Shown in pieces: positions 47,423-56,638 of a stretch of DNA of 64,000 nt (the first letter of the stretch is position 1; each line of letters starts with the position of its first letter). This DNA is from an uncultured Chloroflexia bacterium (GTDB taxonomy: Bacteria > Chloroflexota > Limnocylindria > Limnocylindrales > CSP1-4). The notes beneath the pieces were generated by a model. The model saw only the letters and a list, made by a program, of their open reading frames with translations, did not search any database and was not told the origin of the DNA. Location of the stretch: assembly GCA_963766735.1 (NCBI GenBank), contig CAVYBU010000017.1:64001-128000 (forward strand). Direction: 5' to 3'. Made by a program: the position numbers and the translations under genes.

Positions 47423-48673
47423 CTAGCGGCGCCGGCGCTGGCCGACGTACGTCACGGACAGGAGCAGAGTGCTCATGACCGCGAGGAGGAGTCCGAGCAC
47501 CGACACGAGCGGTGAGGCGTCGGACCTCGTGCTCGGATCGAGCGTGTCGGTCGGGGGCGGAGTTGGGGCGGCGACCGTGATGACAGCCGCGACCTCCAGC
47601 GTCGCTTCGCCGGGATCGACCCCGATGGCGACGATCGAGTGGGTTCCAGCCGATGTGGTGGTCGGGATCTGGACGGTCGTCGAGAAGGTCCCGTCTGCCG
47701 AGGCGATCACGGTCTTCAGGTAGACCGGCGTCGAGTACAGCCATAGCTCCACGTCGGAGTCGCCCATGAAGCCCTGGCCCGACACGACGAGATCCTGACC
47801 GGGTACGACCTCGGTGTCATCCACGATGATTGCCGGCTCGCCTGGAGCCGCCGTCGGAGCAGCCGTCGGGGCAGCCGTCGGGGCAGCCGTCGGAGCCGCC
47901 GTCGGGGCAGCCGTCGGAGCCGCCGTCGGAGCCGCCGTCGGAGCCGCCGTCGGAGCCGCCGTCGGAGCCGCCGTCGGAGCCGCCGTCGGGGCCGCCGTCG
48001 GAGCCGCCGTCGGGGCAGCCGTCGGAGCCGCCGTCGGAGCCGCCGTCGGAGCCGCCGTCGGAGCCGCCGTCGGGGCAGCCGTCGGAGCCGCCGTCGGAGC
48101 CGCCGTCGGAGCCGCCGTCGGAGCAGCCGTCGGGGCAGCCGTCGGAGCCGCCGTCGGCGCAGCCGTCGGAGCAGCCGTCGGAGCCGCCGTCGGAGCAGCC
48201 GTCGGAGCAGCCGTGGCCAGATCGATCAGCCCGGTGATAGCCCCCGGCACGGGCTGGCCCGTAGTCGCGTTCCCGTTGATGTCGTAGATCGTGTTGTTGT
48301 TGCCGAGCGTCCAGCCTGGCTGGCTGTTGCCATTGATCTCGGCCAGGTTCGTCTGGCCGTTCGGGTCACCGTCGGAGTTCGCCCCGGCTGCCCCGTTGAT
48401 GGCCGCGGCATTCGCTCCACCCTGCACGATCGCCCACCCATACGGGTTCCAGGTGTCCTCCCCCGCAGGTCCGTGGCAGAGAAGGCAGGCCGCGTTGGTG
48501 TCAGAGGTGGATGCGGGGTAGATCCCCGACCAGGTGTTCCCGATCGAGTTGAAGGCAAGGACGCTGGCCGGGATGACCAACAGGGCCAGGGCGGTGGCGA
48601 GTCCCGCGAGACGCGCCCGTCGGCGGTGCCGTCGCGGCTTCGGGGTCCTGCGTGGATCGTCGGCTTGATGCAT
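47423..48673 (-). CDS. Secreted CxxCH protein with PTAA stalk, Ig-like domain and sortase-like C-terminal anchor
   Basis: Signal peptide ending VLA; CLLCH; 31 TAAP units; PGQDLVVSGQGF...GTFSTTVQIP...GTHSI; PPPTDT + TM + RRRR. Confidence 0.85.
   Translation of the reverse strand: MHQADDPRRTPKPRRHRRRARLAGLATALALLVIPASVLAFNSIGNTWSGIYPASTSDTNAACLLCHGPAGEDTWNPYGWAIVQGGANAAAINGAAGANSDGDPNGQTNLAEINGNSQPGWTLGNNNTIYDINGNATTGQPVPGAITGLIDLATAAPTAAPTAAPTAAPTAAPTAAPTAAPTAAPTAAPTAAPTAAPTAAPTAAPTAAPTAAPTAAPTAAPTAAPTAAPTAAPTAAPTAAPTAAPTAAPTAAPTAAPTAAPTAAPTAAPTAAPTAAPGEPAIIVDDTEVVPGQDLVVSGQGFMGDSDVELWLYSTPVYLKTVIASADGTFSTTVQIPTTTSAGTHSIVAIGVDPGEATLEVAAVITVAAPTPPPTDTLDPSTRSDASPLVSVLGLLLAVMSTLLLSVTYVGQRRRR
47844..48215. 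repeat. 12-bp coding tandem repeat x31 (GGAGCCGCCGTC consensus)
   Basis: 372 nt; variation only at positions synonymous for the minus-strand PTAA reading. Confidence 0.95.
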
Positions 48674-49269
48674 GTGTCTCCCTTTCGGCCGCGTTGGGCG
48701 GCCCGTGATCCGGCGCTGGTGTCACTACGACGGCGCCGTGCGGCGATCGCGTGCTTGCTGAGGTCTCCTCTGTGCGTGGGCGGACACCTGCATCAAAGGC
48801 ACCATCGAGGCGCCTCGCGACAGCGTCCAGGCCCGGGCTTGCCGACCCTGACGAGGCTCGAGGCTTCGAGCCATCCCAACGGCTGGCGGAGCCGGCCACG
48901 ACTCCATGCCTCTGAGGCGCAGGAACTGTCGCGGGGTTTCGGGTATCTGGGGGCCGTATGGCCTGTTATCGGGGGGCCGTAGGGCACATCAGCAATGAGG
49001 ACGACCAGGCACTCCGAGCGAGACACACCCGCGGCAATTCGCCGCGATCCGCACCCAGAGCCCGCGGAACCGCCATTTGCCGGGCAGCGCGGGGCATATG
49101 CCGGCCTGGGGCGGGACACGGGTCCGGTCCTGAGCGTGGGCCGGCGCGAATGCCAATCAGGGCGACATCTGAGGGTTCCGGGCTCGGGAGGCTCCGGCTC
49201 TGGGCTGGGGAGCGCCGCGTCCTGCGTCTCGCGTCGTGGCTGCGTGTTCGAGCCTACGCGCCTCGAGCC

Positions 49270-51138
49270 CTACGTCGCGCGTCGCGTCCGCCGCGTCGTG
49301 GCCGCCGGCTCGATCGATCGGCCCGGGCCCTGCTCCTCCGCGATCACCCCGATCGAAACCCTGAACCCGGCCCGCCGCTGCTGAGAAGGCAGCAGCGTGC
49401 ACTGGCCGACCGGAGCATCGCCTTCGAACCAGCGGATCCACTCCCGGTTGAAGGCGTCGAACTCGTCCGGGTTCTTCAGCGACCAGTTCGCCCAGACGAT
49501 CTTGTCCAGCGAGGTGCCCTCCGCCTCCAGCCTTGCCTTGAGATTGGTGAGGCACTGGATCGTCTGGGTCTTGAACGTCCCGCCGACGACCAGACCGGTC
49601 TCGGGATCCACCGGCCCGATCGACGAGACGTAGACCATGCCCCCGGCCTTCACCGCCCGCCCGAGGCCGACGGCGGCCTGGGAATCGTCGGGTTGCACGA
49701 CGGTCTCGCCAGTGATCGAGCGCCCCTTGCCCTGGCGGCTGAGGCCCACCTCCGCGGGGTCGACGGCAGGGATACCGAACTCCCCGGGCGGCAGCTCGAT
49801 CCCGTTGGCCTTGAACTTGCCCATGAAGGTCGGTCGGATGCCGGTTGGTGCCAGCACTCCCTGGATCTTCCCGTCGCTGACGCCGGTCTGCTCGAACGCG
49901 AAGACGTCCTGGGTGAGGATCTCGTCGTCCTCGATCCCGTAGATCTCTGTGATGTTGACGACCTTGCGGGAGCCGTCCTTGAGGCGGGCCGTGTGCACGA
50001 TCAGGTCGACGGCCGAAGCGATCTGCTCACGGATCGACCGCAACGGCAGCTCGTAGCCGGACATGAGGACCATCGTCTCCAGGCGGCGGAGCATGTCCGG
50101 CGGGCTGTTGGCATGCCCGGTGGACAGCGATCCCTCCTGGCCGACCATCATGGCCTGGATCATGTCCAGCGCCTCGCCGCCGCGGCACTCGCCGACGATG
50201 ATGCGGTCAGGGCGCATGTGCAGGGAGTTGCGCAACAGGTCCCGGGTGGTGATCTCGCCCTCTCCCTCGAGGTTCGGCGGCCTTGCCTCCAGCGTGACGA
50301 CATGCTCCTGGCGGAGCTGCAACTCGGCCGCGTCCTCGATCGTGATGATCCGCTCGTTCTCGGGGATGAACGACGACAGGACGTTGAGCGTCGTGGTCTT
50401 GCCCGAGCCGGTGCCGCCGGACACGAACACGTTGAGGCGTGCCTCGACGCACACGCGGAGGAACTCGAACATCTCGGCCGTCGCGGTGCCGAAACCGACA
50501 AGGTCCTCGACGGTGAACGGCCTGGCCGCGAACTTCCGGATGGTGATCACGGGTCCCACCAGGGACAGCGGCTCGATCACCGCGTTGACGCGCGAGCCAT
50601 CCGGGAGGCGCGCGTCAACCCTCGGGCTGGACTTGTCGATGCGCCGGCCGAGCGGGGCGATGATCCGGTCGATGATCCGGAGCACGTGATCGTCGTTCAG
50701 GAAGGTGGCATCGACCCGCTGGACCTTGCCGCCGCGCTCGATGTAGACGTGATCCGGGCCGTTGACCATGACCTCGGTGATGGTCGGATCCATCAGCAGC
50801 GGCTCGAGCGGCCCGAGGCCGCCGACCTCGGCGATCACCTCATCGATCAGCCGGAGACGTTCGTCTCTCGTGGAGGCGACCCCATTTGCCGCGAGGAACC
50901 GGTCGACGACCGCCCCGACCTCCTTGTGGCTGTCAGCGCCGGCGTCAACGGCGAGCAGGGTATCCGAGGCCTTGATGACCTCGTCCTGGAGGCGTCGCCG
51001 GATGTCGCGCAGCCACTCCTCCCGCGCCGCGACCTGTGTCGGCTGCGGGGCAGGCGCAGGCGCGGCGACCACGTCAACGCTGGTCTCCTGGAGATCCACC
51101 CGCTGCTGTGCGCGTTCGATCCGCCTGCTCAGGGACAT
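49270..51138 (-). CDS. TadA/CpaF secretion ATPase fused to C-terminal Rid (YjgF/UK114)-like domain
   Basis: GLGPLEPLL.DPTITEVMVNG, GGTGSGKTT, TIED, RPDRIIVGE, STGHANS; then RAVKAGGMVYVS..GP.DP, QT.QCL.NL...L...GTSL..IV, F.AFN..W...F. Confidence 0.9.
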   Translation of the reverse strand: MSLSRRIERAQQRVDLQETSVDVVAAPAPAPQPTQVAAREEWLRDIRRRLQDEVIKASDTLLAVDAGADSHKEVGAVVDRFLAANGVASTRDERLRLIDEVIAEVGGLGPLEPLLMDPTITEVMVNGPDHVYIERGGKVQRVDATFLNDDHVLRIIDRIIAPLGRRIDKSSPRVDARLPDGSRVNAVIEPLSLVGPVITIRKFAARPFTVEDLVGFGTATAEMFEFLRVCVEARLNVFVSGGTGSGKTTTLNVLSSFIPENERIITIEDAAELQLRQEHVVTLEARPPNLEGEGEITTRDLLRNSLHMRPDRIIVGECRGGEALDMIQAMMVGQEGSLSTGHANSPPDMLRRLETMVLMSGYELPLRSIREQIASAVDLIVHTARLKDGSRKVVNITEIYGIEDDEILTQDVFAFEQTGVSDGKIQGVLAPTGIRPTFMGKFKANGIELPPGEFGIPAVDPAEVGLSRQGKGRSITGETVVQPDDSQAAVGLGRAVKAGGMVYVSSIGPVDPETGLVVGGTFKTQTIQCLTNLKARLEAEGTSLDKIVWANWSLKNPDEFDAFNREWIRWFEGDAPVGQCTLLPSQQRRAGFRVSIGVIAEEQGPGRSIEPAATTRRTRRAT

Positions 51139-51300
51139 GGGTCTCGTTCCCCCGGGGTCGCGATTGGTGCCGAGGCCAGCAGTCTATGACCCGACCTCCC
51201 TTTGCGCGAGCCCCGGGCGCATCGTCGGGCGCCCCCGGCGGTGCGAAGCTGCACCGCCGACGCTCGTGACGGCCGGACCCTGAGCGGGGACCTGGCAGGC

Positions 51301-52122
51301 TCAGGGCGCCTCGAGCCCGTGTGCCTCGAGGAGCGCCTGGTCGGCCAGGATGACGTCGGTCCGCCCATCAGCCACGACCGCCCCGTCGTCGACGATGACG
51401 GTCCGGGGGAACACCTCCGCCACCAGGCGCATGTCGTGGGTCGAGACGAGCATCGTCTGGTCCAGGGAGCGCAGGAGGCCGATCAGCTCCCGCCGCCCCC
51501 GCGGGTCCAGACCGGCCGACGGCTCGTCGAAGACGAGGATGGAGGGGTCCATCGACAGCACGGTCGCCAGGGCCACGCGCTTGCGCTGTCCCAGGGACAT
51601 CCGGTGCGGTACGCGGTGTGCGAAGACGGCCATGCCGACGGCGGCCAGCGCGCGCTCGACTCGCCGGTGCACCTCGTCCGCGGGCAGGCCCATGTGCAGC
51701 GGCCCGAACGCGACGTCGTCGAAGACCGTGGGGCTGAAGAGCTGGTCGTCCGGGTCCTGGAACACGAGGCCCACCTCGGAGCGGACGCGCCGGATCGTGT
51801 CCTTGCCCACCGTCATGCCCGACACCCGGACCGAACCGTGCTCGGGCCGGAGCGTGCCGTTGAGCTGGAGCATCAGCGTGCTCTTGCCGGCGCCGTTGGG
51901 GCCCACCAGCGCGACCTTCTCGCCGGCCGCGATCCGGAGGTCCACGCCGCTCAGGGCCTCGAAGCCGTCTGGATAGCGGAAGTGGACGTGCTCGAGCTCC
52001 ACCGTGCCGCGGCCGTCGTTGCCCGCGAGCTCGGGTCCCGCGTCGGCCTCGTGGTCGTGGGCATGCAGATCCGTGCCGTCGTCGGCGTGGATGTGCTGGT
52101 GAATGTGAAGGTCGTTGTTCAC
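51301..52122 (-). CDS. cbiO: Ni/Co ECF transporter ATPase (CbiO/NikO) with His-rich N-terminus
   Basis: GPNGAGKST, VFQDPDDQLFSPTV.DDVAFGP, DEP; GTGA overlap with cbiQ. Confidence 0.92.
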   Translation of the reverse strand: MNNDLHIHQHIHADDGTDLHAHDHEADAGPELAGNDGRGTVELEHVHFRYPDGFEALSGVDLRIAAGEKVALVGPNGAGKSTLMLQLNGTLRPEHGSVRVSGMTVGKDTIRRVRSEVGLVFQDPDDQLFSPTVFDDVAFGPLHMGLPADEVHRRVERALAAVGMAVFAHRVPHRMSLGQRKRVALATVLSMDPSILVFDEPSAGLDPRGRRELIGLLRSLDQTMLVSTHDMRLVAEVFPRTVIVDDGAVVADGRTDVILADQALLEAHGLEAP

Positions 52123-52913
52123 AGGCGGGGGAGCCACAGGATGGCGATGACCTCGTAGGCGGCGAACAGGGCGAGGACGAGCGCAAGCCAGGCGATCTCG
52201 ACGCGGGCGAGTGCGCGGGTCCGCAGGTGGCGGAACTCGCCCTCGAACCCGCGCGCCTGCATCGCCGCATAGATGCGCTCGCTGCGCTCGTAGGCGCGGA
52301 GGAACAGCGATCCGACCATCCGGCCGGTGACGGTGGCCCGCCAGCGGATACTCCCGCCTCCGCGCCCCGGGCCCAGTGCGGAGCGGGAGTCCCGGGCGCG
52401 CAGCATCCGCGACCCCTCGTCCGTGAGGACCGCCATGTAGCGGTACATGAACGAGATGATCGAGACCAGGATCCGCGGCAGCCGGAGCTCGCGCAGCGCG
52501 TCGATCAGATCGTGGAACGGGGTGGTGAACGCAAGCAGCAGCGCCACCTGGACCGACAGCCAGCTGCCGGCCATGATCGTCAGGAACCGGCGCAGCCCCT
52601 CGGCGGAGATTGTGAGGTCGAGAGGCCCGATCGAGATGGTTGCGATGATCTGCTCCTGCACGGTGAAGATCAGCGGGAACGCGGCCAAGGCAAACGGCAA
52701 CGCCACGACCGCGCCTCGCGACAACCGGAATGGCCCGAGGCCGGCGGTCGCGGAGCAGGTGACCAGGATCAGCCAGATGATCAGCATCGCCAGTGCCGAG
52801 CCGACCGGCAGCAGCGAGATGACCAGGATCCCCGCGATGGTCGCGATGAACTTCAGCCGGGCGTCGGCCCGGTGGAACGGGCTGTTGCCCTCTACGTAGC
52901 GGTCGAGCTCCAG
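52119..52913 (-). CDS. cbiQ: Ni/Co ECF transporter T component (CbiQ/NikQ)
   Basis: SPFHRADARLK, FMYRY, RARDSR, LFLRAYERSERIYAAMQARGF; apparent CTG start. Confidence 0.9.
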   Translation of the reverse strand: MELDRYVEGNSPFHRADARLKFIATIAGILVISLLPVGSALAMLIIWLILVTCSATAGLGPFRLSRGAVVALPFALAAFPLIFTVQEQIIATISIGPLDLTISAEGLRRFLTIMAGSWLSVQVALLLAFTTPFHDLIDALRELRLPRILVSIISFMYRYMAVLTDEGSRMLRARDSRSALGPGRGGGSIRWRATVTGRMVGSLFLRAYERSERIYAAMQARGFEGEFRHLRTRALARVEIAWLALVLALFAAYEVIAILWLPRL

Positions 52914-52925
52914 GGGTCGGCGCCC

Positions 52926-53315
52926 CTACGCCCGTCGGCGCGCGAGAAGGCGGCCCAGAAGGTACATCACGCCCACCACGATGGCCACGCCGATCAGGCC
53001 CGACACGATCGTGGACACGGCCGGGTCGTCGATGCCGGGGATCGCGTAGTCGGACAGGATCCCCGAGAAGAAGTTGCTGGCCCGGTCGATGAAGCCCTGG
53101 TCCTCGGCGACGCGCTCCAGCCCGTCGGGATCCGAGGAGGCGAGCGGCGCGAGCACCACGACCACCAGCGCGGCGATGGCGACGCCGGCCACCCACCACC
53201 AGCGGCCGAGGCGCGAGGTCTTCTCCGCCGGGCCGTCCTGGGGTTCGCTACCGGTTGTCGATCCGTTCTCGTTCGTCACGGGTGCGTCTTCCACGGATGT
53301 CACGTCGACGTTCAC
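52926..53315 (-). CDS. PDGLE-domain protein (NikN-like)
   Basis: APLASSDPDGLERVAE..GF, DY.IPG, two TMs; GTGA overlap with cbiM stop. Confidence 0.9.
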   Translation of the reverse strand: MNVDVTSVEDAPVTNENGSTTGSEPQDGPAEKTSRLGRWWWVAGVAIAALVVVVLAPLASSDPDGLERVAEDQGFIDRASNFFSGILSDYAIPGIDDPAVSTIVSGLIGVAIVVGVMYLLGRLLARRRA

Positions 53316-54067
53316 GCCGGCGCCGTCGTCGACGCTGGCGTTGCCGCAGAGGTCGCCGCCGCTGCGGCGGCGCGGTCCGGTCGCAGGTTGAGCAGGTCCG
53401 GGCGGGTCGTCGCGATGAAGGCGAGGGCAGCGCCCGTGATGAGCGCCTCGCCGATGCCGATGAAGGCGTGGACGCCGAGCATCGCCGGCAGCACGATCTC
53501 GGCCGGGCTGGTGCCGGAGACGATCAGCTGCAGGGACATTGCCAGCGCTGCAGCCATGACAGATAGCCACCCGGCGACGGCCGCGGCGGGGATCCGGCCC
53601 CGGTTCTCACCCCCGAGGACCTTCGCCAGCGCGAGGTACACCGCGAATCCACCCAGCGTGCCGATCACGCCCATGTTGAAGATGTTGGCGCCCATCACCA
53701 CCAGCCCTCCGTCGGAGAAGACCAGCGCCTGCACGGCCACCACGCAGGCCATCACCAGGGTCGCCGCCCACGGTCCCAGGAGCACGGCCGCCAGGACCCC
53801 GCCCAGGAGGTGCCCCGACGTCCCACCGGCAACCTGGAAGTTGAACATCTGCGCCGCGAAGATGAACGCGGCCATCACGCCCATCAGCGGGATCGATCTC
53901 TCATCGAGGGTCCGGTTGGTCCGGCGGACGGCGACCGCGATCACGATGGCGGTCACCACCCAGAAGGCGATCGAAACGGGCACGCTGAGGAACCGGTCCG
54001 CGGCGTGGAGCGCGGGCGTTGAACCGGTCACCGAAAGGGGCGCGGCGGCGATCGAGTAGAAGTCCAT
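53312..54067 (-). CDS. cbiM: Ni/Co ECF transporter S component (CbiM/NikM)
   Basis: AAFIFAAQMFNF, GGTSGHLLGG, QAL.F.DGG....GAN..NM, H..IGIGEALIT. Confidence 0.93.
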   Translation of the reverse strand: MDFYSIAAAPLSVTGSTPALHAADRFLSVPVSIAFWVVTAIVIAVAVRRTNRTLDERSIPLMGVMAAFIFAAQMFNFQVAGGTSGHLLGGVLAAVLLGPWAATLVMACVVAVQALVFSDGGLVVMGANIFNMGVIGTLGGFAVYLALAKVLGGENRGRIPAAAVAGWLSVMAAALAMSLQLIVSGTSPAEIVLPAMLGVHAFIGIGEALITGAALAFIATTRPDLLNLRPDRAAAAAATSAATPASTTAPA

Positions 54068-54138
54068 TGGCCAGGGGCTCCGGGTGTGCGCGGTCGGCGC
54101 TGGGGACGGGCCCAAATCCTATTCGCATGACGTTGCTC

Positions 54139-54154
54139 TTGCAAGTGGTTGCAA
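54139..54154. promoter_or_regulatory. Nur-box-like inverted repeat TTGCAA-GTGG-TTGCAA
   Basis: Between divergent cbiM and nur; resembles the Streptomyces Nur box (tTGCaa-N5-ttGCAA) but with N4. Confidence 0.65.
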
Positions 54155-54185
54155 CAAAGCGTCGACCCACCTCATACTCGGCTCG

Positions 54186-54680
54186 ATGCGCGCCCCTGGT
54201 TCATACCCCGCCACGACCGACCGCGCGGAGCCGTCCCCCTGGGCCGGCCTCCGCGAGCGCCTGCACGCAGGGGGTCTGCGCTGGACGCCCCAGCGGCGCG
54301 TCCTCGTGGAGGTCCTGTCGCAGAGCAACGGCCACGTGACCGGCGCGGAGCTCGTGGAACGCTGCCGGGCTGTGGACCCGGCGACCACGCCGTCGACCGT
54401 GTACCGCACGCTCGACGTCCTCGAGAAGCTCGGCATCGTCCGGCACGCCCACGGCGCGGCCGGGCGCGAGGAGTTCCACGTTCTCCCGGACGCGGACCAC
54501 GGGCACCTGCACTGCCGCGGCTGCCGCCAGACGTGGGAGATCGGCGCGGACGAGGCGACGTCGCTGGTCGCGGCCCTCCAGGCGGACCGGGGCTTCCGGG
54601 TGGATCTCTCGCATCTCTCGGTGTCCGGCCTCTGCCGTGAGTGCTCGGCAGCCGACGAGACCGAGGCGCGCCTCCCCTGA
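54186..54680 (+). CDS. nur: Fur family regulator, Nur-like (nickel uptake regulator)
   Basis: TPQRR, STVYRTL..LE.LG.VRHAH, H.HLHCRGC, HLSVSGLCREC; divergent from the Ni ECF operon. Confidence 0.8.
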   Translation: MRAPGSYPATTDRAEPSPWAGLRERLHAGGLRWTPQRRVLVEVLSQSNGHVTGAELVERCRAVDPATTPSTVYRTLDVLEKLGIVRHAHGAAGREEFHVLPDADHGHLHCRGCRQTWEIGADEATSLVAALQADRGFRVDLSHLSVSGLCRECSAADETEARLP

Positions 54681-54862: not shown

Positions 54863-55642
54863 CTACTCCGGCGTCGGAACGCCGAGGATGTTGAATCCGC
54901 CGTCAACGTAGATGATCTCGCCGGTCACGGCAGAGGAGAGATCAGAGCCGAGATACAGCGCGGTCCTGCCCACGTCCTCGATGGTGATGTGGGCACGGAG
55001 CGGGGCGATCTCGTTGAACGGACCGTGGAGCTTGCGGAAGCCCGCTATGCCACCCGCCGACAGCGTGCGGATGGGGCCTGCGGAGATGGCATTGACACGG
55101 ATCCCCTCCGGACCCAGGTCCGCGGCGAGATACCGGACGGACGCCTCGAGCGCAGCCTTGGCGACGCCCATGACGTTGTAGTGGGTGACGACCTTCTCGG
55201 CACCGTAGTAGCTGAGCGTCATCACGGAGCTGCCGCGGTGCAGGTAGGGGCGTGCCTCCCGGGTGAGGGCGACCAGCGAGTAGGCAGACACGTCCAGCGC
55301 CAGCGCGAACCCATCCCGCGACGTCTCCACGAAGGAGCCGTCCAGGTCCTCTCGCTTGGCGTAGGCGACCGCGTGGACGAGGATGTCGATCTCGCCGTGG
55401 ATCGCGGCCCACTTCTCCATCACTGCACGGATCTGCTCGTCGGACTGCAGGTCCGCAGCCTCGACAAAGGTGCTGCCGATGGACTCCGCCAGCGGGCGGA
55501 CGCGGCGCTCGATCAGGCTCTCCACTGACGAGAAGCCGACGATGGCGCCCTCGTCGTGGAACGCCTTCGCGATCCCCCACGCGATGCTGTGGTCGTTTGC
55601 GACCCCGAACACGAGCGCCCTGCGCCCTTCGAGCAAACCCAT
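54863..55642 (-). CDS. fabI: Enoyl-ACP reductase
   Basis: GVANDHSIAWGIA, SAYSL, YNVMGVAKAALE, RVNAISAGPIRTL. Confidence 0.96.
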   Translation of the reverse strand: MGLLEGRRALVFGVANDHSIAWGIAKAFHDEGAIVGFSSVESLIERRVRPLAESIGSTFVEAADLQSDEQIRAVMEKWAAIHGEIDILVHAVAYAKREDLDGSFVETSRDGFALALDVSAYSLVALTREARPYLHRGSSVMTLSYYGAEKVVTHYNVMGVAKAALEASVRYLAADLGPEGIRVNAISAGPIRTLSAGGIAGFRKLHGPFNEIAPLRAHITIEDVGRTALYLGSDLSSAVTGEIIYVDGGFNILGVPTPE

Positions 55643-55675
55643 GCGTGGCTCCTCCCTTCCGATACCCTGCGCATG

Positions 55676-56560
55676 ATGCCCCACCTGCCCGCCCCGGACC
55701 CAGGCCTCCGTGCAGCGCTGCACGGGGTCCGGGCGTTGCTGCTGGACATGGACGGGGTCATCGTTCTCAAGGGCGAGGCCGTGGCCGGGTCGGTCGGTGC
55801 CCTGGCCGAGCTGGACCGGCGGGCGTTCCCGTACCTGATGCTGACCAACACCTCGCTCGTGTCGCGCGAGAAGCTGGCGCAGTGGGGGCGGAAACGCGGC
55901 TTCGCCACGTCGGCGGACCGGTTCCAGACCGCGCTGTCCGCTTCGGCGGAGATGGTGCGGCGGGAGTACGGGGACCGGCCCGTCTATGTGATCACGTCGG
56001 ACGATGCGCGGGTCGAGTTCGAGGGCATCAACGTGGTTGACGGTGCCGCTGCCGATGCGGCACCCGCCGAGGTGGCCGCGGTGGTGCTCGGGGACTCGCC
56101 GCACGAGATCACCAAGGCGAACCTGGACCGGGCGTTCCGGCTGGTCCGCGGCGGAGCGGCGCTGATCGGAATGCACCGCAACGCCTGGTGGCTCACGCGC
56201 AAGGGACCGACGCTCGATGCCGGGGCATTCCTGGTGGGCCTGGAATACGCGACTGAGCGGAAGGCGCGGATCGTCGGCAAGCCGTCGCCGGCCAGCTTCC
56301 GGCTGGCCTTCGAGCGTGTCGCCGCCGAAGCGCGGGATCGGGGTGAGCCCCGCCTCCTCCGCCGCCAGGTCGCGATGGTGGGGGACGACGTCAACAGCGA
56401 CGTGGGCGGGGCCCAGCGGGTCGGCCTGCGCGGGGTGTTCGTGCGGACCGGCAAGCACGGGGACGCCGAGCTGGCCGCCGCCGCTGCGCGTGCGCGGGGC
56501 GCGGTCGTGCCTGATGCAATCGCGTCGTCGATTGCCGAGGTCGTCGCGGCGCTCGACTGA
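55676..56560 (+). CDS. HAD-IIA family hydrolase (LHPP/NagD-like)
   Basis: DMDGV, LTN, GKPS, MVGDD..SDV.GA, VRTGK; start 55673 or 55676. Confidence 0.9.
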   Translation: MPHLPAPDPGLRAALHGVRALLLDMDGVIVLKGEAVAGSVGALAELDRRAFPYLMLTNTSLVSREKLAQWGRKRGFATSADRFQTALSASAEMVRREYGDRPVYVITSDDARVEFEGINVVDGAAADAAPAEVAAVVLGDSPHEITKANLDRAFRLVRGGAALIGMHRNAWWLTRKGPTLDAGAFLVGLEYATERKARIVGKPSPASFRLAFERVAAEARDRGEPRLLRRQVAMVGDDVNSDVGGAQRVGLRGVFVRTGKHGDAELAAAAARARGAVVPDAIASSIAEVVAALD

Positions 56561-56638
56561 CCCACCGAGAACTCTGTGCCCCGTCGGCCGACCAGCGTCG
56601 CCGCGACACACCCATGTCCATCGCGGCGCCAGGGGCTG

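Follow-up and report, generated by a model that had tools for sequence, protein, structure and literature searches.

A CpaF/TadA ATPase paralog fused to a Rid-fold domain that lacks the catalytic residues in one family of Limnocylindria

The stretch of DNA considered here, 64,000 nucleotides of contig C17 of the genome of an uncultured Chloroflexia bacterium (G000) and hereafter called the window, carries a gene in which a paralog of the Tad motor ATPase CpaF (TadA) continues through a linker into a domain of the Rid fold. The gene occupies positions 49270..51138 of the minus strand and consists of 622 codons, starting with ATG, and a stop codon (49270-49272). A single continuous open reading frame (ORF) of this length had been described at the same place in an earlier note on this DNA, made without database searches and without naming a strand; the frame is present as described and belongs to the minus strand. 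The plus strand over the gene is likewise open, with a 743-residue ORF at 48958..51189, and the G+C content is 70.6%, a composition at which double-open frames are common. Since the codon-position GC amounts to 0.67/0.46/0.90 in the minus frame, this frame is taken as the coding one, and matches to protein families are found in the minus frame only.

Two Pfam families cover most of the protein: T2SSE, which spans residues 107-385 (206 bits over a cut-off of 24.9; E 8.8e-61), and Ribonuc_L-PSP (PF01042), which spans residues 489-600 (52.8 bits over a cut-off of 27.3; E 4.8e-14). The top NCBIfam model, TIGR03819 (TadA family conjugal transfer-associated ATPase), reaches 319.8 bits and stays under its curated cut-off of 373.15. 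Residues 70-449/450 align to the structures of Caulobacter crescentus CpaF (PDB 9e24, 8rjf and 8rkd; phmmer, E 2.7e-114 to 4.2e-114). Homology to CpaF is full-length, encompassing the three-helix bundle (3HB), the N-terminal domain (NTD) and the catalytic RecA-like domain (CAD), and AlphaFold2 models residues 71-460 with a predicted local distance difference test score (pLDDT) of 73-95 per 10-residue block. The protein begins with a low-confidence N-terminus and the 3HB, also termed N1 (residues 1-106; 50821..51138, minus strand like all features that follow; AlphaFold2 helices at 33-64, 70-84 and 91-106). The NTD and CAD (residues 107-456; 49771..50820) are homologous to Caulobacter CpaF up to its natural C-terminus and lead into a mostly disordered linker of 34 residues (457-490; 49669..49770), in which the pLDDT falls below 50 at residues 464-469 and 472-490 and whose length varies between 29 and 35 residues in 47 sequences (median 34). 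Next comes the Rid-fold domain without catalytic residues (residues 491-600; 49339..49668), recognized through PF01042, PDB 2csl, AlphaFold2 and Foldseek, and finally a variable basic tail (residues 601-622; 49273..49338) that is gapped in most of the 47 sequences and has a pLDDT below 50. At some loci the frame continues beyond the Rid domain before reaching a stop, by 55-90 codons in L012, L013, L019, L021 and L057 and by more than 500 codons in L022; these runs represent either longer tails or missed stops. The full-length AlphaFold2 model (pLDDT 77.4; predicted template modelling score, pTM, 0.60) consists of a well-folded ATPase, the linker and a beta-alpha-beta domain, and with this pTM and a linker pLDDT below 50 it cannot be relied on for where the Rid domain sits with respect to the ATPase. 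The succession of a complete CpaF ATPase and a Rid-like domain, which had been proposed from the letters alone, is confirmed by the Pfam matches, the alignments to PDB entries and the model.

The fusion is shared by many genomes. Both Pfam families are carried by 119 of the 120 best database matches (72-96% identity), the exception (P0016) being a tandem double CpaF. Full-length matches belong to Chloroflexota, Candidatus Limnocylindrales and Limnocylindria, and those that extend only to about residue 455 belong to Thermomicrobiales and Bacillota. A scan with one genome per species found 578 relatives, from which 80 loci were kept; 50 of these contain both parts, in 46 cases in one frame without a stop between them. 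The four exceptions (L050, L051, L055 and L086) have frame changes within the ATPase part and all stem from one series of metagenome-assembled genomes (MAGs). The class was sampled evenly with 301 genomes, and linker-plus-Rid matches were accepted at E <= 7e-49. On this basis the fusion type is present in the window's own family (f1, G000 included) in 64 of 92 genomes, among them 12/12 of the window's genus, and is absent from all 209 genomes of the four other sampled families. Genomes flagged as unpublished enter the class-wide tallies but not the f1 counts. Weaker matches to the Rid part proved to be stand-alone Rid genes in all 11 loci examined. Two long open frames in G195 and G162, considered as possible fusions outside f1, were rejected on the same grounds, being stand-alone Rid genes without an ATPase match (L130 and L131). 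After clustering at 50%, the representatives that extend over both parts are few (P0128, P0167, P0145 and fragments).

An assembly or gene-calling artefact that joins two genes would find its only support in the general risk attached to MAGs. The recurrence of the same uninterrupted frame in 46 of 50 loci comes from many independent projects, the coding signal in third-codon-position GC is continuous, and contigs from three DNA runs, each of a different study, reach across the linker (X1, 49332-50251; X2, 49610-50177; X4, 49483-49820), which leaves this explanation with a negligible chance of being correct. The suspicion that the fusion might be unique to this assembly and unsupported by reads is thereby removed. 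Short contigs of an RNA-library run (X18) also fall on parts of the gene, one of them across the linker (49651-49811, 12 differences in 161 positions). They come from a relative, carry-over of DNA is possible, and transcription is not established by them.

For a comparison of individual sites, the 47 fusions (the window and 46 loci) were set against 30 canonical CpaF sequences of the same family. The latter are the best 30 matches to the canonical protein and hence biased to similar sequences, which in part explains their low entropy. A wider check used two sets of 120 database matches each, fusion-type and canonical, together with the 150 best 50%-identity representatives. The nucleotide site is retained throughout the fusions. 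Every residue of the Walker A motif GGTGSGKTT (residues 241-249; 50392..50418) is found in 47/47, and in the Walker B motif DRIIVGE (residues 311-317; 50188..50208), which includes the catalytic E317, the same applies to D311, R312, V315, G316 and E317, with I313 in 45/47 and I314 in 46/47. The cis arginine fingers R177 and R183 (Caulobacter R217 and R223) are present in 47/47 fusions and in 120/120 of the wider set. Walker A, the catalytic Glu of Walker B, H342, R177, R183 and D175 are invariant in fusions and canonical copies alike. In the His box region (residues 331-342; 50113..50148) the window's protein reads M331-V-G-Q334-E-G where Caulobacter CpaF has NTGHDG. The earlier note had reported this exchange, and the reading is correct; it does not, however, characterize the family, because residue 334 is polymorphic (Q in 27 and H in 20 of 47; Q in 108, H in 11 and N in 1 of 120). 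Moreover, it affects the counterpart of Caulobacter H374, while the equivalent of H382, described as the His at the gamma-phosphate in the cryo-EM structure (PMC11300603), is kept as H342 in 47/47.

The most unusual feature of the ATPase, absent from the earlier note, is a His fixed at the position of the trans arginine finger. This residue, H307 (50218..50220), corresponds in the alignment to 9e24 to Caulobacter R347, which according to the published accounts reaches from the neighbouring subunit to engage the gamma-phosphate and is conserved in all type IV filament (TFF) ATPases (PMC12019362, PMC11300603). At position 307, all 47 fusions have His and all 30 canonical copies have Arg, and the corresponding counts in the database sets are 119/120 for His and 119/120 for Arg. 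Among the 150 best representatives, 138 have Arg and eight have His, six of the latter belonging to the fusion family. The two outsiders, P0124 (1605 residues, with several tandem copies of the ATPase) and P0216 (703 residues), combine His at the trans-finger position with a Met kept at 173. A second fixed change is a gained Arg, R173 (50620..50622), at the position of Caulobacter I213, on the strand that bears D175 (D215) and the cis finger R177 (R217). Arg occupies this position in 47/47 fusions and Met in 30/30 canonical copies (119/120 and 118/120, respectively, in the database sets). Only six of the 150 representatives have Arg here, and the five that are listed (P0128, P0133, P0135, P0167 and P0208) all belong to the fusion family. 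The AlphaFold2 model places R173 on a predicted strand (173-177), where it should face the same side as the cis finger R177 and D175, the residue that partners R347 in Caulobacter. The replacement of the trans finger would entail one of three consequences: slow turnover of ATP, dependence on R173, or action on canonical subunits in mixed rings.

A third difference concerns residue 347 (P347 in the window; 50098..50100), aligned with Caulobacter R387. A preprint states that the substitution R387A in Caulobacter CpaF abolishes observed retraction (Whitfield et al., 2026; bioRxiv 10.64898/2026.02.24.707734). This position is Arg in 30/30 canonical copies and in 120/120 of the wider canonical set; the 47 fusions have Lys in 15, Pro in 14, Arg in 10, Ala in 3, Ser in 2 and other residues in the remaining three, and 13 of the 120 fusion-type matches have Arg. 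The residues G204, R205, R206, D208, E331 and G334 of Caulobacter CpaF are described as conserved at the predicted interface with the platform (Yen et al., 2025; PMC12019362), and their equivalents are kept in 47/47 fusions, R206 in 46/47. Averaged over residues 70-456, site entropy is 0.58 in the fusions and 0.12 in the canonical copies. Within the fusions it is highest at the N-terminus of alpha11 (1.55), in the 3HB (1.26 over residues 70-118, against 0.05 in the canonical copies, the most relaxed part of the ATPase) and in the C-terminal motif (0.89), and lowest near the nucleotide site. Twenty-one type-II substitution sites distinguish fusions from canonical copies and are spread through the core. 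A divergent fusion-type protein, P0167 (653 residues, approximately 50% identical, matching up to residue 601), shows further replacements: its Walker A Lys is replaced by Arg, its Walker B Glu by Arg and H342 by Ser, and Ala stands at the trans-finger position. This single sequence is possibly a fully degenerate member of the family.

The C-terminal part of the protein aligns to RidA-type structures (2csl, E 1.5e-14; also 1xrg and 2b33). AlphaFold2 models residues 477-622 with a pLDDT of 83.2, and all listed PDB matches obtained with Foldseek for this model are Rid/YjgF proteins, with template modelling scores by target of 0.68-0.87 and root mean square deviations of 1.5-2.4 A over 107-114 columns (2csl, 35% identity). 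The Rid fold, on which the first interpretation of this gene hinged, is therefore borne out by prediction and structural comparison. As had also been recognized at the outset, the motifs of catalysis are altered. P576-V577-G578 (49405..49413) stands in place of the P-A-R of RidA, with Gly at the equivalent of Arg105, and V594-S595-I596-G597 (49348..49359) in place of V-E-I-E, with loss of the equivalent of Glu120; both replacements are seen in the sequence and in its alignment to solved RidA proteins (2csl and 2b33 for the second). P576 is found in 47/47, G578 in 46/47 and 118/120, S595 in 44/47 and G597 in 46/47, and the position of Tyr17 (residue 492) is variable (L in 15, Y in 7, D in 7, H in 6, R in 5 and others). 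Arg105 is reported as essential for imine hydrolysis (PMC4433059). Stand-alone Rid relatives from the same class (loci L121-L131) are 41-47% identical to the fused domain and read NEEW.RWFP.DPPARQGAK where the fused domain reads REWIRWFEGDAPVGQCT; the Arg is present in 12/12 tblastn matches, which indicates that it was lost in the fusion lineage and not before. No ATPase match lies beside the stand-alone genes in any of the 11 loci. These genes have a residue pattern of their own, the Arg being kept (PPARQG) together with a Ser at the Glu position of V-E-I-E, and this combination differs from the subfamily patterns given in PMC4433059.

A bifunctional enzyme, with a working imine or enamine deaminase tethered to a motor, would agree with the PF01042 match above cut-off and with the predicted fold. 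Judged by its residues, the domain lacks every catalytic hallmark of RidA and Rid1-3, namely Arg105 (Gly in 46/47 and 118/120), Glu120, Tyr17 and a match to TIGR00004, which scores 53.9 bits under a cut-off of 106.25, and the loss of the Arg is specific to the fusion when compared to its nearest stand-alone relatives. Deaminase activity is for these reasons very improbable. The domain has nevertheless been maintained. Median ratios of nonsynonymous to synonymous substitution rates (dN/dS), calculated by the NG86 method from 46 fusion pairs of at least 80% identity that are not independent of each other, come to 0.11 in the ATPase core, 0.34 in the N-terminus, 0.36 in the linker and 0.25 in the Rid domain, so that both the ATPase core and the Rid domain are under purifying selection. 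In addition, 22 columns of the Rid domain are invariant in 43 sequences, and W549, W552, Q579 and the two-residue insertion R588-R589 are invariant in the fusions and absent from the stand-alone relatives. The dN/dS of 0.25 and the 22 invariant columns argue for a maintained module and not a decaying remnant.

The same observations bear on the reading that the earlier note had favoured, in which pockets between the subunits of Rid trimers, possibly two trimers to a hexamer, would bind a small molecule whose occupancy alters ATPase activity or access to the platform. Rid proteins are described as binders of small molecules with pockets between subunits (PMC4433059), and purifying selection as well as the domain's private invariant residues would suit such a role. 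However, the residues that hold the carboxylate are gone (Arg105 replaced by Gly in 46/47, Glu by Ser or Gly, and Tyr17 variable), no metabolic gene recurs in the gene's context, and no ligand can be named. Gating by a metabolite is accordingly regarded as doubtful. Structure prediction for three copies of the Rid domain gave scores of 0.42, 0.16 and 0.43, with one control at 0.24, and allows no call either way.

The ATPase part is 67% identical (82% positives, residues 34-456) to the canonical CpaF of the same genome, which stops at LPPGLFGF exactly where the fusion runs on as LPPGEFGI-PAVDP. A quick maximum-likelihood tree was built from 16 of the 47 fusions, 10 of the 30 canonical CpaF sequences, 28 relatives that are not fused and one extra paralog, 55 sequences in all. 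Rooted at the midpoint and supported by the Shimodaira-Hasegawa-like approximate likelihood ratio test (SH-aLRT) only, it recovers the fusions as a monophyletic clade (SH-aLRT 100, stem 0.49) within a 98%-supported clade that also holds the canonical CpaF of the family, with the sequences of Thermomicrobiales and Bacillota outside. Tip branches measure 0.09-0.31 in the fusions and 0.02-0.07 in the canonical copies. By this tree and the identities, the fusion gene is a fast-evolving duplicate that arose within the lineage from the family's own CpaF, in agreement with the initial description of an orphan paralog of the Tad motor ATPase. A horizontal origin from Bacillota, suggested by 62-65% identity to CpaF of Bacillaceae, was rejected, as the tree and the 67% identity favour the copy in the genome. 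Two classes of ATPase can be told apart in 61 genomes of f1: canonical-type proteins, 74-100% identical to the canonical protein with frames of mostly about 465-510 residues, and fusion-like proteins, 61-73% identical to it with frames of mostly at least 580 residues. The fusion-like class is present in 31 of the 61 genomes, 26 of which also contain the canonical one; the other five genomes are 73-87% complete. A third, unfused CpaF paralog is found at L120 (contig C135 of G209), 68% identical to the canonical protein and 59% to the fusion. It was considered as an unfused intermediate and rejected, given its canonical-like M173, R307, H334 and R347.

The genome that contains the window (3.62 Mb, 93.9% complete, 4.2% contaminated) has three T2SSE genes. 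The two others are located on contigs C19 and C29, where a pair of T2SSF genes comes after each of them, and T2SSF genes are found on no other contigs; Flp-like matches, below the Pfam cut-off, are likewise confined to C19 and C29. The main tad locus thus lies on these two contigs and not on C17, and the absence of flp, tadB and tadC beside the fusion, remarked upon from the start, holds true. On C29 the order is three flp genes, a cpaB-like gene, a response-regulator-type tadZ, cpaF (470 residues), tadB and tadC; names in this locus were assigned by first residues and gene order, and T2SSE, T2SSF and Flp by family search. A response regulator and a 392-residue gene head this canonical locus (L089, 1344-16955), and genes of 96, 224 (Cys-rich) and 197 residues follow tadC. 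The loci on C19 and C29 (L088 and L089) are 95.4% identical over 13.7 kb, with 81-86% similarity beyond; either they come from two strains that were binned together in this MAG, or the locus was duplicated recently. In most relatives there are two T2SSF matches, corresponding to one tad locus, and T2SSF occurs in 89 of 91 genomes of f1.

Genes of pilus assembly are also missing around the fusion in relatives. No tad genes were found near it by tblastn of the window's neighbour proteins across 50 related loci, by clustering of ORFs from 51 loci or by Pfam analysis of eight neighbour proteins from seven loci, a negative that rests on these scans and not on tad family models. Clustering covered 691 ORFs within 6 kb of the gene. 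The largest cluster, antisense ORFs over the start of the gene in 19 loci, is read as spurious. The recurrent neighbours are a divergent LeuRS gene (10 loci) and a downstream gene for a YgjP-like metallopeptidase (8 loci), none of them related to pili, and ETF, ABC and MFS genes stand beside the fusion at single loci each. In the window itself, cbiM (53312-54115), cbiQ (52119-52787) and a cbiO-type ABC ATPase gene (51301 to about 52100) are found upstream of the fusion on its own strand, with a Fur-family gene divergent to them. The arrangement cbiM-(gap)-cbiQ-cbiO constitutes a cobalt/nickel transporter of the energy-coupling factor (ECF) type (51301-54680), and the gap at 52788-53311 is where cbiN might lie. 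Since, apart from the window, no more than five close loci (L013, L016, L019, L022 and L057) have cbiMQO upstream, a functional link to cobalt/nickel transport was rejected. Downstream follow a gene for a PT-repeat protein and, on the opposite strand, one for a GT4 glycosyltransferase. The former (47423-48673, minus strand) is a 416-residue ORF with a match to the Pfam PT disordered repeat (E 8.6e-20) and an atypical codon-position GC of 0.67/0.68/0.81; near 47900 one codon phase reaches 100% GC, and no relatives of it were found in the 80 loci. Further upstream, a 582-residue ORF (54863-56611, minus strand) has an enoyl-ACP reductase/short-chain dehydrogenase/reductase (SDR) domain at residues 336-574 only. 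Its N-terminal 335 residues have no Pfam match and are 42-53% identical in relatives, compared to 84-92% for the SDR part.

The gene's position, always unlinked to tad genes, invites the reading that the fusion drives a partner other than the Tad platform, in the membrane or the cytoplasm, with the Rid domain as an adaptor. Faster evolution than in the canonical copy, the relaxed 3HB and the long stem after duplication (0.49) would fit such a change of partner. The contacts predicted for TadB and TadC on loop 8 and the pore loop are nonetheless kept in 46-47 of 47 fusions, most f1 genomes have no alternative T2SSF-type platform (two T2SSF matches), and no neighbour is seen in more than 10 of the 51 loci apart from the 19-locus antisense set, so this reading is judged quite unlikely.

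Another reading connects the two copies directly: fusion and canonical CpaF would form hetero-hexamers, in which the His at a neighbour's ATP site slows or gates the cycle and the Rid domain marks or organises the subunits that carry it. The identity of 67% extends across the inter-subunit core, the trans finger alone has been lost with all cis elements kept, and the fusion has not been seen convincingly in a genome without the canonical copy. On the other hand, the two genes are unlinked and show no expression coupling, the 21 type-II sites through the core could equally prevent mixing, and R173 may compensate for the finger within a homo-hexamer. Modulation through mixed rings is considered unlikely.

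The reading preferred here, to which we assign a probability of about 0.45, is that of an accessory, neofunctionalised CpaF paralog that docks by its conserved N-face and whose retraction face is capped. The lineage's own cpaF was duplicated in one family of Limnocylindria, and the copy gained a linker and a Rid domain past its native C-terminus. Because the fusion gene has no platform genes of its own, the protein presumably uses the TadB/TadC platform that the single canonical tad locus encodes, either beside the canonical CpaF or alternating with it. Its nucleotide site is kept, with Walker A and B, the gamma-phosphate His and both cis arginine fingers, and so are the N-face residues that, by prediction, hold the platform when the ring is oriented for extension. 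The C-face is altered in three ways: the key Arg is unconserved, constraint on the C-terminal motif is relaxed, and the putative hexamer would have six Rid domains of approximately 110 residues tethered at its C-termini. In Caulobacter, CpaF's C-terminal face has been tied to retraction and a flip of the ring has been proposed in a preprint (Whitfield et al., 2026; bioRxiv 10.64898/2026.02.24.707734). A ring whose C-face is without the required Arg and crowded by tethered domains may dock by the N-face only, and its action would then be biased to extension or holding instead of being bidirectional. Catalytic coupling would have changed as well, through the exchange of the trans finger for His and the new Arg beside the cis fingers. 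The Rid domain itself is envisaged as a cap, steric or organising in its action, and perhaps also as a module for binding, but not as an imine deaminase.

A more far-reaching form of this proposal holds that the fusion is a one-way Tad motor and the first type IV filament ATPase family to work without a trans finger. Here, capping by a non-catalytic Rid domain and decay of the retraction Arg would go together with a relocation of the gamma-phosphate finger from R347, now His, to the former I/M213, now Arg (R173), that is, to a strand in the subunit's own NTD. This stronger version strikes us as improbable. Were it true, two motors would split the work on one platform, an arrangement like that of PilB and PilT in type IVa pili but reached by another route.

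Several points weigh against docking by the N-face and a capped retraction face. The gene lacks any link, physical or genomic, to the tad locus and sits in varying housekeeping contexts, and with tad near-universal in f1 (89/91), co-occurrence is uninformative. The 3HB, a predicted platform contact in the extension orientation, is strongly relaxed, which is at odds with a simple picture of a kept N-face and a lost C-face. With a long and disordered linker (median 34 residues), the Rid domains do not have to obstruct the C-face as an mCherry fused directly might. Of the 47 fusions, 25 still have Arg or Lys at position 347, and the loss of the trans finger could signify a poor or inactive ATPase instead of a one-way motor. 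The inversion model itself comes from an unreviewed preprint and is largely based on AlphaFold3, and the boundaries used here for its beta13-beta14 turn and C-terminal motif do not derive from its figures or supplements. Lastly, the members of the family are known here from sequence alone.

Set beside systems already described, the protein has the domain order of Caulobacter CpaF/TadA (PDB 9e24, 8rjf and 8rkd), which powers Tad (Flp, type IVc) pili as a bifunctional motor, with 3HB, NTD and RecA-like CAD, and possesses Walker A and B, the Asp-box region, the counterparts of H382 (H342) and of R217/R223 (R177/R183) and the contacts of loop 8 and the pore loop. It deviates in the exchange of R347 for His and of I213 for Arg, in the unconserved R387 and in the added linker and Rid domain; its gene lies outside the tad locus and has a rate of evolution several times that of the canonical copy from the same genomes. 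By fold and homology it is a CpaF that lacks two of the items by which the family is defined, the trans finger and a tad locus, and it is therefore classed, on sequence grounds, as a variant paralog. The canonical CpaF of the same genome (470 residues on C29, with the 95%-identical twin locus on C19) has the C-terminal LPPG.FG in common with it and is distinguished by M173, R307, NTGHDG, R347 and an end at LPPGLFGF, as well as by 79-95% identity across the family. An engineered counterpart exists in the CpaF-mCherry fusion of Caulobacter, which likewise places a folded domain on the C-terminus and thereby on the face linked to retraction, and for which the preprint reports that no retraction events were seen (bioRxiv 10.64898/2026.02.24.707734). 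That fusion is artificial, whereas the family described here has a disordered linker of about 34 residues and a natural Rid fold under selection. Among Rid proteins, the subfamilies Rid4-Rid7 also have the fold without the Arg for imine hydrolysis, and their function is given as unknown (Niehaus et al., 2015; PMC4433059). In that account Rid4-Rid7 keep the Glu, with Trp at the Arg position in Rid4 and Rid7 and variable residues in Rid5 and Rid6; the fused domain, with Gly at the Arg position and the Glu lost too, is set apart from them by the published residue pattern. By sequence it is closest to RidA-type structures (2csl) and to the stand-alone PPARQG group of Limnocylindria (L121-L131), with which it has in common NEEW.RWFP.D.P..QG and an ending in R[IV]S[IV]..IAE. 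Unlike the fused domain, that group keeps the Arg, is without W549, W552 and the QRRAG insertion, and is not joined to an ATPase. No published description of an architecture combining CpaF/TadA and Rid was found in the full-text literature, subscription papers and supplements being outside the scope of this search.

The family adds a further case in which an Arg-less Rid fold serves as a module of a larger protein, and Arg-less Rid proteins are otherwise without known function. A fixed replacement of the trans finger combined with a new Arg on the cis strand is rare in the set compared here, where only two of the 150 closest representatives outside the family share the His, and the changes at H307 and R173 bear on coupling between subunits in motors of the PilT/VirB11 type. 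Recent studies address the open question of how a single CpaF can power the extension of Tad pili as well as their retraction (Hohl, 2024; Yen, 2025; Whitfield, 2026, preprint). In these Limnocylindria, nature provides a matched pair in the same cells, a conserved canonical CpaF and a diverging copy with a decorated C-face, an unconserved retraction Arg and fixed N-face contacts. The pair yields predictions that can be tested by grafting in Caulobacter and may serve to probe how the motor reverses.

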